Positions 1,738 to 39,716 of a DNA stretch of 39,716 nucleotides are shown here, piece after piece; within the stretch, counting starts at the first letter, position 1; each line of letters begins with the position of its first letter. The stretch lies in the NCBI GenBank assembly GCA_045635025.1, contig JAZRBK010000188.1, positions 1-39,716 of the forward strand, in the 5' to 3' direction. The translations under genes were made by a program, and so were the position numbers. The stretch comes from Candidatus Scatosoma sp. Its GTDB lineage: Bacteria; Bacillota; Clostridia; Christensenellales; Borkfalkiaceae. Under the pieces are notes generated by a model. That model had not been told where the DNA came from, did no database searches, and saw nothing but the letters and a program-made list of their open reading frames with translations.

Positions 1738-2243
1738 TGTTCCGCCCCTCCGATAGTCAAACGGACGCGCCCCTTTAATGAATAGTACGGGGAAAAACGC
1801 CCGTATCGCTCAATCGACCAATTCACCTTTGCGACCCATTCCGCGATGTCAACGGTTTCTTTTGCAATTTGATTTCCGCTGTACTTGTAAAAATCGCCGT
1901 CCTTTAACATCATAGCCATTGAATAGCGCGACTTGTATTTGACGATTTCCTTTTCGGCGTTATTCACGAACCCTACGCCAATCCCGAACATAACCGCACC
2001 GATAGTAACAATAATGACGATAGCGAGGACAAACTTTCGGAAGTTCCGCTTGAAATAGGCTACGCGCGAAAGATATGCTCCATTTTTACCGTAATATAAT
2101 TTCTTAACCCCCGTATCGGGACTTTCCTTTTTTTTCTCGGCGTTTTCCTTGCGCCACAACGCAAACGCGATTAAGTGGTATGTCACCACCAAGCCTGCCG
2201 CCACCGCGATAAACACGATAGCCAAAATGTAATATCCGTTCAT
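1731..2243 (-). CDS. Membrane protein with two predicted TM helices (170 aa)
   Basis: ORF track. Hydrophobic segments are YYILAIVFIAVAAGLVVTYHLIAFALW and FVLAIVIIVTIGAVMFGIGVGFV. It has an ATGA overlap with the upstream gene. Confidence 0.8.
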   Translation of the reverse strand: MNGYYILAIVFIAVAAGLVVTYHLIAFALWRKENAEKKKESPDTGVKKLYYGKNGAYLSRVAYFKRNFRKFVLAIVIIVTIGAVMFGIGVGFVNNAEKEIVKYKSRYSMAMMLKDGDFYKYSGNQIAKETVDIAEWVAKVNWSIERYGRFSPYYSLKGRVRLTIGGAEQW

Positions 2244-2566
2244 TTTTTATTCCCCCTTTTATTTATTTCGGATAACGCTTTATTTATTTCGTATAACTCT
2301 TGAAGAAGCGTCCATCGTTTTCCACACATTCTTTGACGCAATGCACTCTCTATCATTGCTTTCTCCCGTAGCAAATTGGCACGCTTCGGCTTTTCTCTTG
2401 ATATTTCAGCCATAAGCATATCGGCTTGTCGTAACTGCTCAAAATAACCTTTCGGATAAATCGGCGTTCCGTCGGCGCGCATAACATCAATACATTTGAT
2501 AGTGTCGCTTATTCCGTTTTCGTCAAGCATTGTTTTCCCCCTTTTGGGCGGAATAGGCTGTTTCAT
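2240..2566 (-). CDS. Hypothetical protein; start uncertain (ATG at 2566, or ATG at 2530 with a stronger AAAGGGGG RBS)
   Basis: The ORF-track version (2240..2674) would run into the tRNA-like element and has no RBS. Both internal ATGs do have RBSs. Confidence 0.7.
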   Translation of the reverse strand: MKQPIPPKRGKTMLDENGISDTIKCIDVMRADGTPIYPKGYFEQLRQADMLMAEISREKPKRANLLREKAMIESALRQRMCGKRWTLLQELYEINKALSEINKRGNKK

Positions 2567-2641
2567 CACCGCCCCTTGCGCTTCCTCCGCGCTTTGCGTT
2601 ATTTTGCCGCCATCTGCGGCGAGGTTCGCCACCCCTCCTTG

Positions 2642-2711
2642 TGGGCGGTAGCGGTTTCGACCCGCCGACCTCACGGTTGTTGCCGTGCGCGCTTCCCTGC
2701 GCTAACCGCCC
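2642..2711 (-). tRNA. tRNA-like element (70 nt) with a full cloverleaf but non-canonical anticodon and T loops
   Basis: The minus strand reads GGGCGGT TA GCGC AGGGAA GCGC G CACGG CAACAA CCGTG AGGTC GGCGG GTCGAAA CCGCT ACCGCCC A. This gives a 7-bp acceptor stem, a 4-bp D stem, a 5-bp anticodon stem and a 5-bp T stem (one G-U). The anticodon loop has 6 nt (or 8 nt with a 4-bp stem) and contains no U. The T loop starts with G instead of T, and no CCA is encoded. Confidence 0.55.
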
Positions 2712-2722
2712 TCGTTACCTTT

Positions 2723-2752
2723 ATTATACCATACTTTGCCATAGTTTTTACA
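2723..2752 (-). promoter_or_regulatory. Extended -10 promoter (TGGTATAAT, weak -35) placed 11 nt upstream of the tRNA-like 5' end
   Basis: TATAAT is at 2728-2723 on the minus strand. The GGTATAATAAAGGTAA block is identical to the promoter at 4777..4806. Confidence 0.5.
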
Positions 2753-2801
2753 TCAGTAAATTTTATGGGTGGTATAAATACAGTTTATCGCTTATCCCCC
2801 T

Positions 2802-3005
2802 TTAAGTCATACGAACCTTGCGTCTTACTTCCCTTAAATACCTTTTCAAGTTCCGTTTCAGTTTTTCCACGCTCACACGCATACTCACTTTGCAAACCTC
2901 GCCGTTCGTCCTTTTCACGGGCGTTCTTATGCGCCGTACCTCGCGGACAACCTTTCCGTCACGGAGAAAGTAAAAGCCGTCCTTTACTACTTGCAACTTC
3001 CTCAT
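2802..3005 (-). CDS. Hypothetical basic protein (67 aa)
   Basis: ORF track; ATGA overlap with the upstream gene. Confidence 0.7.
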   Translation of the reverse strand: MRKLQVVKDGFYFLRDGKVVREVRRIRTPVKRTNGEVCKVSMRVSVEKLKRNLKRYLREVRRKVRMT

Positions 3006-4027: not shown

Positions 4028-4347
4028 AGTTCCTCCACGCCGAACTCGTTTTCTATATCTTCAAAGATACACGGGTCAAATGTCACGATAGGGCTGTGCG
4101 GAGAAGATGGATAATCATATCCAAAATGTCCGTTCTCCTTAAGAAAATCAATTATTTTCTTCACCGTTTCCTTTCGTACTTCGTCGGCTTTGCGATAACC
4201 TGCGTCAACCAAAACACCCAAATGGCACTCGTCACAATGCAAAGCACATTCCGTATGGGAAAAATGGTCACAAAGATTTTGTTCTCTAAATTCCGATATG
4301 GTATCTTCCATACCTTTTATGCGTTTATCCCTTTCTTGTTCAGTCAT
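4024..4347 (-). CDS. Hypothetical Cys/His-rich protein (107 aa) carrying a YRKADEVRKE motif
   Basis: ORF track. The motif and its underlying DNA are shared with 6424..6834. Confidence 0.8.
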   Translation of the reverse strand: MTEQERDKRIKGMEDTISEFREQNLCDHFSHTECALHCDECHLGVLVDAGYRKADEVRKETVKKIIDFLKENGHFGYDYPSSPHSPIVTFDPCIFEDIENEFGVEEL

Positions 4348-4747
4348 AAATCGTCACCCCCCTCTCTTTTACATTGTGTTTGAAGCCGAACCCCACCGAC
4401 GGGGAAAGCCCTTTGAAATAGTTTCTTGCAAAGGTTTCACAGTCATAGTCAACGCCGTCAATTTCGACCAACTCGCCGCCGCAGTCCGTAAAGCCCACGA
4501 TATTCTTGTCCGAGAATACGCCGCTAACGCTCCCTGCAAGCACCATTGTTTCCACCGCGTCCGCAAGCCTCTTGTCGTGGACTTCTTCCCTCAAAAACTT
4601 GCAGTACCCGTCGATTATCCCCATAGCCTCGTTTCCGCGCATATTGCGATAACAAAGGTATCGTCCCAAGCAAGCGAACACCTGCGTTTCTCCGATTTTT
4701 AAGAGGTTGTCCCCCATAAGCACATTGCCGATTTCTTTCTTAATCAT
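4340..4747 (-). CDS. Hypothetical protein (135 aa)
   Basis: ORF track; GGGGG RBS; first gene after the promoter at 4777..4806. Confidence 0.8.
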   Translation of the reverse strand: MIKKEIGNVLMGDNLLKIGETQVFACLGRYLCYRNMRGNEAMGIIDGYCKFLREEVHDKRLADAVETMVLAGSVSGVFSDKNIVGFTDCGGELVEIDGVDYDCETFARNYFKGLSPSVGFGFKHNVKERGVTIYD

Positions 4748-4776
4748 TTTGTTGTCCCCCTTGTTTTCTTACCTTT

Positions 4777-4806
4777 ATTATACCACGCATTTTTCACACC
4801 GTCCAA
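4777..4806 (-). promoter_or_regulatory. Promoter: TTGGAC, 18-nt spacer, TATAAT with TGn extension
   Basis: On the minus strand, TTGGAC is at 4806-4801 and TATAAT at 4782-4777. Confidence 0.6.
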
Positions 4807-4838
4807 TCAATAGATTTTATGGGCGGTATAAATGGGGT

Positions 4839-5252
4839 TTATACCTCGTCGCTCTTATAAGGCTTTATGCAAATATATGGGTTTAATTCTTTGTTTCGCA
4901 GTAGTTGTGCTTTCTTTATCTCCACTTCTTGCTCGACAAACAATTCGATACCGTCAACACACATTTTCAATTCCTCATAAAAGTCATTGACGGCTTTGTC
5001 CGTTTCTTCAAATCTCTTATGCTCGGTACTGCTCTTTGAACAGCCAAACATATTATAAACTTCCGTTCCAATAATGATTGTTTCTTCACTTAATTTTCGT
5101 TCTATGTATGCTCTTATGCTACCTTTTTGTATAATTCCAACAAGCACCCCAACTTCAAATGGCGAATATTGCACCAATATCGTGTATCCATTGTAATCCT
5201 TTGTCAATGGGCATTTTCCAAATCCGCAAAATATTTCATCGTAATTTTTCAT
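4839..5252 (-). CDS. Hypothetical protein (137 aa)
   Basis: ORF trimmed to MKNYDEIF, which has a GAGGGGAG RBS. Confidence 0.75.
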   Translation of the reverse strand: MKNYDEIFCGFGKCPLTKDYNGYTILVQYSPFEVGVLVGIIQKGSIRAYIERKLSEETIIIGTEVYNMFGCSKSSTEHKRFEETDKAVNDFYEELKMCVDGIELFVEQEVEIKKAQLLRNKELNPYICIKPYKSDEV

Positions 5253-7586: not shown

Positions 7587-8489
7587 TTAACTTTTTTCTT
7601 CCTCGCCGTCATCATCGGCTTGCGGCGTGATTTTTGCCCACGAAAAGAACTTATCAATAAACATAATAAGTTCCACATAGAACTTGTTTTTGTACTCGCG
7701 CGAGGACTTTTCGCCGTTGATATAGGACGATACGGCGGTCATAATCATAGAACCGATAAACACGCACGATTTCACAATAGCGGCAAAGGAAAGCCCGTCA
7801 CGCATATTATAGCCGATGTACGCGAGAATACCGCCGATGACAATGGACTTAAACAGGCGGGCGGCGTGTTGCGCTTTGCGGTAGGTTTGCGAGCCGTCCT
7901 TGATAGCCTCCGTGTAGTCGCGGTCAACTGCGGAAAGGATAGTTTCGGGGTTGTTCGCCTTGACGGGGTTTTTCCCGAAAACAAGTTTAATGACCGCCCT
8001 GCGGCGTTTTGGCGTAAAGTACAGCACCTTGCCGTTCAACTCCAACTTGTCAATGGTTTTCAGTTCCGCTTTGGACTTTTGGGCAAGGGCGGCGTACTCC
8101 TCAACGCTCACGCCGATTTTAGCACATTCGTCAGCAATATGGCGCGCCTTGCGTTCCTCAAAGTCATACTCGCAAAACTCCCTCAACTTCTCCACCGAAC
8201 TGTTGTCCGTAGTGATAATTTGGGCGGATTTCTTATTATAGGATTTTCGGTTTGTTTGAAATACATTGTCAAGTTCCCCGTATCGTTCGCCGTCGGGGAA
8301 GTATGCAAAGTGCGTGCTTATTTGGATAGCCGCCGTCAGCGCGAAGTCTATCCAATCAATCTTGCTTTTAATGGAAAGCGTCACGAAAATATATAACGCC
8401 AAAAGTGCGATAATCGTGACCGAAAGCGTCCAAGTCCTTGCGCGGATTATACGGACGCGCGCCGTGAATTGATTTGTGTTATTTCCCAT
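7587..8489 (-). CDS. Multi-pass membrane protein (300 aa), function unknown
   Basis: ORF track. It has at least 4 hydrophobic helices, two N-terminal and two C-terminal, around a soluble central domain. Confidence 0.8.
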   Translation of the reverse strand: MGNNTNQFTARVRIIRARTWTLSVTIIALLALYIFVTLSIKSKIDWIDFALTAAIQISTHFAYFPDGERYGELDNVFQTNRKSYNKKSAQIITTDNSSVEKLREFCEYDFEERKARHIADECAKIGVSVEEYAALAQKSKAELKTIDKLELNGKVLYFTPKRRRAVIKLVFGKNPVKANNPETILSAVDRDYTEAIKDGSQTYRKAQHAARLFKSIVIGGILAYIGYNMRDGLSFAAIVKSCVFIGSMIMTAVSSYINGEKSSREYKNKFYVELIMFIDKFFSWAKITPQADDDGEEEKS

Positions 8490-32958: not shown

Positions 32959-34161
32959 TTATTCAGCCGCTTTGAAGTTGTAGATAGGTTTCAGCATAGC
33001 CAAGATTTCGACGGTGTCTTTGACAAGTTCTACTATTTCCTCGCTCGGCTTGTAGGCAAACGGTGCTTCGTCGATAGTCGTTTCGTCCACGGTTGTCGAA
33101 TACACACCGCTCATAGTTTCTTTGAAGTCGGCAAGTTGAATTTCTTTTCTTGCCTGCGCCCTGCTCATAGAGCGACCTGCCCCGTGCGGCGCGCTGTTGT
33201 TCCATTCGGCGTTCCCTTTCCCAAAACCCAAAATATACCCGTCGCGCATATTAAGGGGGATAAGGACTTTTTCTCCTTCTTTTGCGCTTATTGCGCCCTT
33301 GCGAACGATACCGTCCTCGCCTATGTAGTTATGCAGGGTAGTAAAACCAACTTCCTCGATGATACCGAACGCAATAGATTGTCTTACTTCACAATACTTT
33401 GAGAGAATGGCGGCGGCTATCATTTTTCTATTATAGTCGGCAAATTTGCGGCAAATCTCAACATCGTGCAAATAGTCTTTCAGCAAGTCGCCCGTAAGGT
33501 AGGACAATTCTTTCGGGACGAGCGGCTTGCTTTTCTTATAGGCTTTTACGGCTTCCTCAATTTCAGTCGTTCTTCCCTCGCTCTTTAAGCGGTCAATAAC
33601 TTCCTGCACGCCGTCAAGTTTCATTTGTTTTTCCGCTTTCTTTTGGTAGATTTCGGCAACCTGCTTTCCGAGATTACGCGACCCCGTATGAATTACAAGG
33701 TATTTAGCGCCCCGCTCGTCAATGTCAAGTTCAATGAAGTGATTACCGCCGCCGAGCGTACCTGCGGAAGCGCAAAGCCATTCCCTGTTGCGGAGTTCGT
33801 CTTTGCATTTCAGCAAATCAATAAGTTGTCCCATACCCACGGACGGCTCTTTTTGCACATTTTTTCCCGACGGGACTTGCTCTTTTACAACCTTGTCAAA
33901 TCGTTCAAGGTCGATTTTGTCCTTTCCGAGCAAAACGCAAAGCATACCGCAATTCAAGTCAACGCCTACGATGTTGGGGCATAACTTGTCCCCAAGCGGC
34001 GCGGTAAAGCCGATTACGCACCCTGCTCCCGCGTGACAATCGGGCATAATGCGGATAGGTGCGTCGCCAAATATTTTCGTGTCGGCAAGCCGTTTTATTT
34101 GTTCAACGGCGGCTTCTTCCACATTGTCCGTAAAGATTTTCACATTGTCAAATTCTTTCAT
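32959..34161 (-). CDS. rtcB: RNA 3'-phosphate/5'-OH ligase RtcB
   Basis: 400 aa with the RtcB hallmark motifs MPDCHAGAGCVIG, GGGNHFIELD, HTGSRNLG, PLNMRDG and NSAPHGAGR. Confidence 0.9.
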   Translation of the reverse strand: MKEFDNVKIFTDNVEEAAVEQIKRLADTKIFGDAPIRIMPDCHAGAGCVIGFTAPLGDKLCPNIVGVDLNCGMLCVLLGKDKIDLERFDKVVKEQVPSGKNVQKEPSVGMGQLIDLLKCKDELRNREWLCASAGTLGGGNHFIELDIDERGAKYLVIHTGSRNLGKQVAEIYQKKAEKQMKLDGVQEVIDRLKSEGRTTEIEEAVKAYKKSKPLVPKELSYLTGDLLKDYLHDVEICRKFADYNRKMIAAAILSKYCEVRQSIAFGIIEEVGFTTLHNYIGEDGIVRKGAISAKEGEKVLIPLNMRDGYILGFGKGNAEWNNSAPHGAGRSMSRAQARKEIQLADFKETMSGVYSTTVDETTIDEAPFAYKPSEEIVELVKDTVEILAMLKPIYNFKAAE

Positions 34162-38836: not shown

Positions 38837-39450
38837 TATTTTTGTCCCTCGCTGTCATTAGCCAACTGTTCAGCCTGCGCCGCTTTTTTTTGGTCGTAGG
38901 CTTTCTTTTGGTCGATGATGTATTGCGCTTGCTCCTGCGTTAAGTCCTCCAACTTATCAACGCCGAACTTGCGGAGCGTGTTTTCCACCTTTACGCCGAG
39001 CGCGGTAAATTCCTTAACCTGCGCCTCCGTGATTTTCGGTGCGGGAGCGTTAGCCTCCGCTTCGGGCAAGTCCTCCCCTGCGTAAACATACAAGCCAAGT
39101 CCGTGGCGAGCGCAAGCCTTTGTCAGCGACCTTTGAATTGCCTTGTTCACATCAAAGGAATTTACCTCCTCCAAAGGAATTGACCTGTTCTTGCTGTTCA
39201 TAACGGGCAAATACTCGATATGCTCCAAGCCCTCGATAGTAACGCCCGTCTTAACCCAACAAGTCTTGCCGTCCGTGTGATAGTTCCAACCCTGCGCGTT
39301 CTCGTAAATCGTGTAAAACGCAGTCGGATAGCGTTTCTTAACTTCCGCCCACGCCCACGCCCAAGAAAGATAGGTCAAACCGCCCTTGTCCTCCGTGTGT
39401 TCGTTCACATTGATATTGTTAAGCGTTTCAAATACCGAAACTTTTTCCAT
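38836..39450 (-). CDS. Rad52-superfamily single-strand annealing protein (DUF1071/Sak3-like), allele B
   Basis: 204 aa with GLTYLSWAWAWAEVKKRYP. It lies upstream of the exonuclease and close to ssb. Confidence 0.7.
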   Translation of the reverse strand: MEKVSVFETLNNINVNEHTEDKGGLTYLSWAWAWAEVKKRYPTAFYTIYENAQGWNYHTDGKTCWVKTGVTIEGLEHIEYLPVMNSKNRSIPLEEVNSFDVNKAIQRSLTKACARHGLGLYVYAGEDLPEAEANAPAPKITEAQVKEFTALGVKVENTLRKFGVDKLEDLTQEQAQYIIDQKKAYDQKKAAQAEQLANDSEGQK

Positions 39451-39493
39451 TAAAATACCCCCTTGTGGGGCTTTCCGCCCCCTTGATACCTCT

Positions 39494-39522
39494 ATTGTAT
39501 CATACTTTCACCGCATTGTCAA
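39494..39522 (-). promoter_or_regulatory. Promoter: TTGACA, 17-nt spacer, TACAAT (copy of the promoter at 1249..1277)
   Basis: On the minus strand, TTGACA is at 39522-39517 and TACAAT at 39499-39494. The UTR hairpin lies at 39467-39481. Confidence 0.7.
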
Positions 39523-39549
39523 CAATTTGCATAAAATTTTTTCAACTTT

Positions 39550-39585
39550 TTTTCTAAAAACAATAACCCCCTGTAAGGGGGTTAT
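39550..39585 (-). terminator. Rho-independent terminator (copy of 1305..1340)
   Basis: The stem ATAACCCCCT/AGGGGGTTAT spans 39563-39585. Confidence 0.6.
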
Positions 39586-39586
39586 G

Positions 39587-39716
39587 TCAGCGTCCTTTAT
39601 TCTTGTTAATCGTCACCACTCGCGCTATTCCGTGCGGGTGGATTTTTTCCTCGCGCGCCTCCTGCGGCAACAGCGTACAATACTGTGAGTAGGTTATCCG
39701 TTCGGTTGGTTGGTAC
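39587..39716 (-). CDS. 3' end of a homolog of gene 1342..1737; 5' end lies outside the window
   Basis: The hand-translated C-terminus ...EEKIHPHGIARVVTINKNKGR* compares with ...EEKIHPHGIARVVTINKNKVR* in the left copy. Confidence 0.75.
   Translation of the reverse strand, partial: YQPTERITYSQYCTLLPQEAREEKIHPHGIARVVTINKNKGR

Follow-up and report, generated by a model that had tools for sequence, protein, structure and literature searches.

A tRNA-shaped RNA, probably non-decoding, at the head of an early operon in a phage contig assigned to Candidatus Scatosoma

What is a tRNA-shaped gene doing directly behind a phage promoter when its anticodon loop appears unfit for reading codons? The question is raised by contig JAZRBK010000188.1 of GenBank assembly GCA_045635025.1 (Candidatus Scatosoma sp.), the whole of which (39,716 nt) we analysed and refer to as the window. 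It represents a phage genome of about 38.5 kb with overlapping ends, and nearly all transcription is on the minus strand. The element lies on that strand close to one end. Our best reading is that it specifies a tRNA-derived, non-decoding, L-shaped RNA that is held folded by selection at the head of an early operon. We favour, tentatively and with rather less than even confidence, the view that its main value would be as a tRNA-type processing ("punctuation") module acting in cis in the operon leader.

The element and its parts are as follows.

2643..2711, minus strand: tRNA-shaped body, given by both ARAGORN and RNAfold
2711-2705/2649-2643, minus strand: acceptor stem, 7 bp
2702-2689, minus strand: D arm, 4-bp stem and 6-nt loop AGGGAA
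2687-2672, minus strand: anticodon arm, 5-bp stem and 6-nt loop CAACAA (2682-2677)
2671-2667, minus strand: variable loop, 5 nt, AGGTC
2666-2650, minus strand: T arm, 5-bp stem and loop GTCGAAA
2639..2642, minus strand: discriminator A (2642) and then CAA instead of CCA, read from the sequence

Set out by parts it reads GGGCGGT-TA-GCGC-AGGGAA-GCGC-G-CACGG-CAACAA-CCGTG-AGGTC-GGCGG-GTCGAAA-CCGCT-ACCGCCC. The only call made by ARAGORN in its default mode over the whole window is a tRNA-?(Val|Cys)(ac) at 2641-2711 on the minus strand, with a 6-nt anticodon loop. RNAfold gives the cloverleaf as both the minimum free energy and the centroid structure (-35.6 kcal/mol, 51% of the ensemble, z-score -3.1), and it persists within the RNAfold structure of the entire 192-nt leader. 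The partners for tertiary pairing are present at U8, A14, G15:C48, G18G19, G26, U55, C56 and A58. Four features are abnormal: the 6-nt anticodon loop without U, the G at position 54 of a T loop that keeps U55, C56 and A58, the 6-nt D loop, and CAA for CCA. The original prediction, made from the sequence without database searches, had described the minus-strand cloverleaf with its stems of 7, 4, 5 and 5 bp, its 5-nt variable loop and discriminator A, the loop CAACAA without U33, the short D loop, the T loop GTCGAAA and the lack of an encoded CCA, and in all of this it was accurate.

A decoding tRNA has a 7-nt anticodon loop with U33 and a purine at position 37; CAACAA departs from this pattern, and the loops of the relatives described below are also of 6 nt. 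With a 6-nt loop that lacks U33 the element cannot plausibly decode, and the earlier expectation of abnormal decoding thus seems well founded, the more so as the element falls below the gathering threshold of the Rfam tRNA model (RF00005), which gives nothing on it at E <= 10. A cmscan search against 4227 Rfam families gave no relevant match, even at E <= 10, and ARAGORN called no transfer-messenger RNA (tmRNA) in the window. Membership of a known tRNA-like Rfam family was rejected for want of a covariance-model match and of tmRNA architecture. The element is not a chance structure, since in 1.79 Mb of fetched loci default ARAGORN made a single further odd-loop call, which proved to be an identical copy of the element in a related phage (locus L163). 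Nor is it an assembly artefact, as elements with 6-nt loops are present on contigs from nine other samples.

The comparison rests on fetched loci, to which we gave L-numbers. The Sak protein of the window led to near-identical proteins (97-98%) in ENA/Logan assemblies, the source of the close relatives, and the comparison set consists of the contigs of these close Sak matches together with contigs reached through more distant Sak homologues and homologues of the protein p131. Four variants of the element were found in it.

v1: the window and L163 (identical); loop CAACAA; the reference
v2: L164, L165, L172 and L173; loop CAATAA; AGGTC changed to AGGAT, G49 to A (G.U becomes A-U), T loop GGCGAAA with G55 as well as G54
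v3: L186 and L187; loop CGATAA; body 64% identical to v1/v2
v4: L182; loop CGTAAA; body 59-60% identical to v1/v2; 205 nt from the promoter

All four sit in a promoter-proximal leader slot behind the same promoter type, and all have a 6-nt loop and an A-CAA tail. Even v4, which lies in otherwise different flanks, keeps the tail. In this phage clade the canonical tRNAs come with an encoded CCA, whereas all the tRNA-like variants have CAA. Each variant folds as a cloverleaf or nearly so (z-scores of -2.6 to -4.6). A covariance model built from v1 and v2 (R1) recovers v3 at 36.8 bits (E ~1e-6), and a model built from v3 (R2) recovers v4 at 63.9 bits and then v2 and v1 at about 36 bits, ahead of every canonical tRNA tested. 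At 74% identity v3 and v4, both short-looped, are clear homologues.

MAFFT mis-registered the 3' halves of the variants, and manual structural and model-based alignments were used instead. In the manual alignment of the four variants 82 of the 84 stem cells form standard pairs, and 12 of the 21 pairs have changed on both sides. The model-based alignment has 98.8% of stem cells paired (one of 82 unpaired) and double changes in eleven pairs. In the controls pairing fell to 76% when columns were shuffled and to 39-44% when partners were slid, and the covariation score was reached by none of 500 shuffles. The closer comparisons give the same picture: v1 and v2 differ at five positions, none of which breaks a pair and one of which turns G.U into A-U, while between v3 and v4 there are three fully compensated pairs (acceptor 5 and 6, D stem 3) and one further mismatch that becomes G.U. 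The 19:56 tertiary pair also appears possible in every variant (G-C, G-C, C-G or U.G, and A-U), subject to the register adopted for the D loop. Between the window and L163 the element is identical at all 69 positions (69/69), with flanks that are 81% and 51% identical and genomes at about 90%. Random decay is disfavoured by the paired stems and by the two-sided changes across the variants, and a decaying tRNA gene, one of the roles suggested originally, is at odds with the outcome of the covariation check proposed at the same time, which found compensation in the stems of homologous loci. The element is best read as a maintained RNA part, its fold kept by selection, and not as a dying tRNA gene.

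Searches by other routes reached no further. As a query p131 alone gave six clusters; five flanking proteins concatenated gave nothing, which is a false negative of the method, since p131 alone has matches. Neither an exact 40-mer of the element in IMG/VR, nor a loops-only structural pattern or a promoter-block pattern in IMG/VR and the JGI metagenomes, had any match. In the genomes of 185,579 species a pattern for the 3' half of the element had no match, and one for the D, variable and T loops had 15, all of them chance matches outside tRNAs. Megablast and blastn against GenBank phages gave only a weak match to tRNA(CAU) of phage BcepSauron, and blastn against E. coli genomes gave none. In IMG/VR nothing related to the flanking proteins p96 and p170 was present, an exact-protein look-up with three window proteins returned no contig, and the relatives that p196, p218 and Sak reached in IMG/VR have neither early-region genes in common with the window nor such an element. 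About 350 nt upstream of the Sak gene of an unrelated IMG/VR phage lies a tRNA-like remnant of 90 nt (L118, 6567-6658), with a good T arm and acceptor stem and a 6-nt loop according to ARAGORN ps95; its fold is no better than shuffled sequence (z-score -0.2). ARAGORN ps95 made three odd-loop calls in the 1.79 Mb, at a stage when L186 and L187 were not yet included, and two of the three are the elements described here. In default mode it recovers v1 only, and Rfam misses the element in all four variants.

The surroundings of the element are those of an mRNA leader.

2752..2802, minus strand: conserved block upstream of the promoter (ATTTATACCACCCATAAAATTTACTGAT...), 76% identical to 4806-4856 (family D17)
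2723..2731, minus strand: extended -10 promoter TGGTATAAT (TATAAT at 2728..2723), a consensus match with predicted activity
2712..2722, minus strand: 11-nt spacer between the -10 and G1 (2711), read from the sequence
2634..2640, minus strand: Shine-Dalgarno-like AAGGAGG, with a GTG 1 nt off and an ATG about 20 nt off, neither a usable start
2531..2638, minus strand: remaining leader, with a hairpin and the Shine-Dalgarno sequence AAAAGGGGG (2544-2536)
2240..2530, minus strand: first open reading frame (ORF) of the operon, 96 aa from the ATG at 2530, C-terminal half conserved in relatives
4767..4856, minus strand: paralogous promoter region that runs straight into a Shine-Dalgarno sequence and an ATG (4747) without a tRNA-like element

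With regard to the promoter, both earlier claims hold: the extended -10 TGGTATAAT is at 2731..2723, 11 nt before G1, and its block is a paralogue of the region at 4777-4806, which leads into an ordinary mRNA gene. The 17-mer TGGTATAATAAAGGTAA recurs without change at 4783-4767, ahead of that gene, and the two 51-nt upstream blocks are 76% identical. The block at 2752..2802 is also conserved in L163, L164, L182, L185 and L186, and the same promoter type precedes either the element or a tRNA in relatives. Transcription is predicted to start at about 2716-2715, which would leave a 5' leader of 4-5 nt for RNase P to remove. A stretch of about 30 nt, ATTTATACCRCCCATAAAATYTAYTGAT, recurs upstream of these promoters (2752-2802 and 4806-4856, and in the same five loci); its complement reads TGGTATAAAT, which resembles an extended -10 aimed in the reverse direction. 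Possible roles of the conserved block are those of operator, UP element or antisense promoter.

The search for intrinsic terminators gave none in the leader downstream of the element, which therefore belongs to the mRNA leader, and a terminator or attenuator role was rejected as there is no U-run behind it. We suggest, speculatively, that the AAGGAGG directly behind the 5' end that an RNase Z cut would create might stabilise or protect that end; its counterpart in L163, AGGAGGGGT..., comes after a second tRNA. The remaining leader differs wholly between variants. In the window it has a hairpin, GGGCGG (2574-2569) with CCGCCC (2551-2546), that repeats acceptor-arm sequences and encloses an upstream ATG (2566); this hairpin (2575-2545) could on paper pair alternatively with the 3' arm of the element. 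Pairing of the loop with the Shine-Dalgarno sequence as antisense, in the manner of C4 RNA of phage P1, was considered and rejected, no complementarity being seen on inspection by eye only. In L164 (5735-5785), L182 (9005-9056) and L186 (645-693) the leader ends in a GC-rich hairpin, CCCC-GAAA-GGGG and the Shine-Dalgarno sequence AAAGGGGG; the runs of C and G have two possible pairings, and with AAAGGGGG concealed in one of them this may be a translational switch.

The early operon behind the element starts with the 96-aa ORF, for which PHROG has no family match, and continues with a membrane protein of 170 aa and an ORF of 131 aa; after these comes a terminator-like hairpin (1340-1318). Beyond this are a new promoter and a recombination module (pentapeptide-repeat protein, Sak, putative nuclease, GIY-YIG and SSB).

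The element behaves as a cassette within this setting. Homology between the window, L163 and L164 stops directly after ...CCGCCC-A-CAA, and the downstream leaders and first genes differ. Between L164 (v2) and L186 (v3) the 110 nt upstream are 96% identical and the early downstream leader is shared, while the elements are only 64% identical. The original suggestion of an insertion into a promoter-to-gene junction fits both observations, homology ending at A-CAA and different bodies lying within near-identical flanks. Other tRNAs can occupy the slot. L185 has at 1601-1676 a canonical tRNA-Thr(UGU), with CCA encoded, 11 nt behind the -10 of a promoter of the same type and ahead of a structured leader of about 250 nt, and L179 also has a canonical tRNA-Thr(UGU) (4319-4393). 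In L163 a second odd tRNA (8306-8414), which at 40.6 bits does reach the gathering score of the Rfam tRNA model, follows v1 after about 190 nt; it has an 8-nt anticodon loop CUCACAUA, its variable arm of about 35 nt contains a separate stem, its elbow is canonical and CCA is encoded. The window is without this second tRNA, the difference being an indel of about 297 nt. L163 also has three successive hairpins at 8121-8169 with the common loop (T/A)CGCT (GGTGG-TCGCT-CCACC, GGAAAGG-TCGCT-CCTTTC and ACGG-ACGCT-CCGT); a similar one lies further down its leader and another in the leader of L185, and they look like repeated sites for an RNA-binding protein.

For the ancestry of the element the R1 model was run against a panel of 18 tRNAs of Priestia megaterium pBM400, tRNA-Ile and tRNA-Ala of E. 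coli, and phage tRNAs. The best match is tRNA-Ile(GAU) of pBM400 at 53.6 bits, followed by BcepSauron tRNA(CAU) at 52.6, Val at 46.1 and Ala at 45.9. We provisionally take the body to be closest to tRNA-Ile(GAU), the panel being without Met, Phe, His and Trp. The two have the same cloverleaf and tertiary-pair nucleotides, and v1 has in common with tRNA-Ile(GAU) G26, the CACG. anticodon stem (one compensated pair apart), AGGTC, G49.U65 and A73; removal of U33 from the tRNA-Ile loop CUGAUAA gives exactly the v3 loop CGAUAA. The element is unlike tRNA-Ile(GAU) in its 6-nt loop without U33, G54 for T54, 6-nt D loop, CAA for CCA and score below the Rfam threshold. With R2, tRNA-Thr(UGU) comes out as the tRNA nearest to the v3/v4 body, and this includes the phage copy in L185. 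As v1/v2 are nearest to tRNA-Ile and v3/v4 to tRNA-Thr(UGU), the ancestry may be mixed or chimeric.

If the element serves as a processing module in cis, the extended -10 promoter would have it transcribed as the first structured unit of the early operon, and host RNase P would then cut at G1 (2711) and RNase Z after A73 (2642). Bacterial RNase P cleaves 5' of G1 in any substrate that has the acceptor/T-arm stack and the elbow, and RNase Z cleaves after the discriminator unless CCA follows. The first cut is to be expected here because the acceptor/T-arm stack and the elbow of D loop and T loop are kept, and the second because CAA stands in place of the CCA that blocks RNase Z. The products would be a tRNA-shaped RNA of about 70 nt, incapable of codon reading, to which CCA could be added once RNase Z had cut, and a downstream mRNA with a defined 5' end, beginning at CAA. 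The anticodon would be irrelevant to this role and the loop free to drift. The sequence features that such a module requires are present, namely a promoter 11 nt upstream, no terminator, the elbow nucleotides and the CAA tail, and cleavage is predicted from them. We lean towards cis processing because any tRNA shape seems to fit the slot, because the loop drifts, and because the element is never a separate transcription unit.

There are however several points that weigh against this. The anticodon arm stays paired though RNase P and RNase Z do without it, the element of L182 is 205 nt from its promoter, and G54 (with G55 in v2) weakens the canonical T loop that RNase P reads. The divergent bodies within conserved flanks look more like diversifying exchange than a passive processing signal. 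R1 ranks tRNA-Ile above v3, and R2 puts tRNA-Thr right after the tRNA-like variants. The covariation comes from only four sequences in two deep lineages, in an alignment fitted to the structure, and v1/v2 and v3/v4 may derive from different tRNAs, in which case part of it could predate the loss of U33 and be inherited from functional ancestors.

The rival that survives best, which we think possible but on balance unlikely, is that the excised RNA acts in trans as a mimic. A stable, uncharged, non-decoding L-shaped RNA would bind a host or phage factor that recognises the tRNA body (candidates being a tRNA-targeting defence enzyme, a toxin that modifies the acceptor end, RNase P, a T-box or another elbow sensor) and would serve early in infection as decoy, inhibitor or regulator. 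This would account for the keeping of the whole L-shape, including the paired anticodon stem and the elbow pair, for the place of the element as first product of a strong early promoter, and for the shortened, U-less loop and CAA tail in every variant. The exchange of divergent bodies within 96%-identical flanks is a pattern typical of arms-race genes, and L163 carries also the second tRNA with an aberrant 8-nt loop. The literature documents both tRNA-directed phage defences and phage tRNAs by which these are countered (PMC10264068, PMC11555353, PMC13056530). However the drift of the loop (CAACAA, CAAUAA, CGAUAA, CGUAAA) rules against a copy of one specific anticodon and so argues against a decoy for an anticodon-specific nuclease, and a stoichiometric decoy must compete with the entire cellular tRNA pool. 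In addition the element has never been seen as a separate transcription unit, the same slot can be filled by a canonical tRNA (L185), and our literature searches gave no report of a non-decoding phage tRNA decoy. It is a minority view for us that a small phage clade may maintain and exchange cassettes of "disarmed" tRNA mimics, made first and acting in trans on machinery or immunity that recognises the tRNA body.

A neutral relic is improbable. On that account a tRNA-Ile-like phage gene lost U33 and drifts, persisting between a promoter and genes that are both needed. The degraded T loop (G54, and G55 in v2), the short D loop and the score under the Rfam tRNA threshold are what a relic might show; the locus is also in flux, the window being without about 297 nt, including a whole tRNA, relative to L163, and IMG/VR relatives are without the element. 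It is difficult to reconcile with only one or two unpaired stem cells across four variants (2/84 in the manual and 1/82 in the model-based alignment), with the compensated differences between v3 and v4 and the five between v1 and v2 that break no pair, and with the identity of the window and L163 elements despite diverged flanks.

That the element is a working tRNA with unusual decoding, in which the 6-nt loop would read doublets or cause a -1 frameshift, or an 8-nt loop made by opening the closing pair would read quadruplets, we consider very improbable. The body is otherwise tRNA-like with discriminator A73, ARAGORN offers AAC or ACA as possible anticodons, and an 8-nt-loop tRNA lies next to the element in L163. 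Against this U33 is missing in every variant and T54 is absent, and the would-be anticodon shifts among close variants (AAC, AAU, GAU, GUA). The 8-nt option, raised originally together with a frameshifting or suppressor-type tRNA, does not survive the comparison: the loop is of 6 nt, the longer form requires opening of G31-C39 and is still without U, as are the loops of all the variants, and the stem left is of 4 bp in v1 and 3 bp in v4. No recoding site needing such a tRNA was identified, and no search for one was made. Lastly a remnant of an attP site copying part of a host tRNA gene is effectively refuted, for although phage attP sites often hold tRNA 3' halves, this is a complete cloverleaf whose 3' half is unmatched among the genomes of 185,579 species, directly behind a promoter in the geometry of the real tRNA in L185, and Pfam finds no integrase domain in the 29 ORFs scanned, a part of the total.

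In the case of RtcB, to which the original prediction drew attention, the gene is indeed in the window (32959-34161, Pfam E = 2.7e-58), but an association with the element is unsupported, since L163 has the identical element and a syntenic interval without RtcB, and there is none in any other relative locus recovered. This includes L179, which like L163 spans the interval from SSB to the small terminase subunit; the content of that interval differs in both. RtcB appears to be an accessory gene, found among these phages in this one only. The ORFs scanned gave no sign of a Ro60 or SmpB partner.

The ends of the window repeat each other at 93-96% identity (1-300 with 38854-39153, and 1222-1471 with 39467-39716, with a 608-bp indel between). 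The copy at the start has a pentapeptide-repeat gene (607-1197) between promoter and Sak and the copy at the end is without it; this looks like a concatemer or an assembly join of two strain variants and not like exact terminal redundancy. A 196-aa ORF on the minus strand holds at 931-1140 a 15-nt unit, CGCGCCACGCAAGTC, which is repeated in tandem about 12 times and gives five-residue repeats, and the homologues of this ORF in L185 and L186 have Pfam Pentapeptide matches.

Turning to known systems, tRNA punctuation occurs in mitochondrial transcripts and in the thrU-tyrU-glyT-thrT-tufB operon of E. coli. The likeness is in having a tRNA-shaped unit upstream of a functional RNA on one transcript that tRNA-processing enzymes split, the cuts in our case being predicted; bacterial and mitochondrial punctuation uses real decoding tRNAs, unlike the element. 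The units of murine gammaherpesvirus 68 share this arrangement, and their tRNA-like part is a viral, non-decoding tRNA mimic; unlike the phage element, they are RNA polymerase III genes and supply microRNAs in their eukaryotic host. RNase P releases the C4 RNA of phages P1 and P7 from the leader of the operon under C4 control. The tRNA-like TMER units of murine gammaherpesvirus 68 are cut by tRNase Z (PMC4838037). YrlA, a bacterial Y RNA, is a non-decoding imitation of tRNA that is handled by tRNA enzymes (PMC4201824). Like the tRNA-like domain of tmRNA and the C4 precursor, it imitates elbow and acceptor, but in these three the anticodon arm is replaced by other modules, while the element is a complete four-arm cloverleaf. 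By analogy the element would work most like tRNA punctuation and the viral tRNA-like processing units, and possibly like tRNA mimics such as YrlA.

The presence of tRNA genes in phages is usually explained by codon supply or by replacement of tRNAs cut in defence, and both require decoding. Phage tRNAs with altered anticodon loops that counter anticodon nucleases still decode (PMC10264068, PMC11555353, PMC13056530). The element resembles them in being phage-encoded with its changes centred on the anticodon loop and the body kept; however they keep a 7-nt loop, decode and replace cleaved host tRNAs (PMC10264068; PMC11555353), which the element cannot plausibly do. Our literature searches gave no description of conserved 6-nt-loop tRNA-like RNAs in phages. 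For annotation the consequence is that this class of element is missed by Rfam (4/4 variants) and largely by default ARAGORN (3/4). As compensatory evolution has preserved the tRNA shape even after the anticodon loop lost what decoding requires, selection would be acting elsewhere, either on processing of the early transcript or on tRNA mimicry. If the mimic interpretation is true, the family would be a non-decoding counterpart of the phage tRNAs that counter tRNA-cleaving defences.

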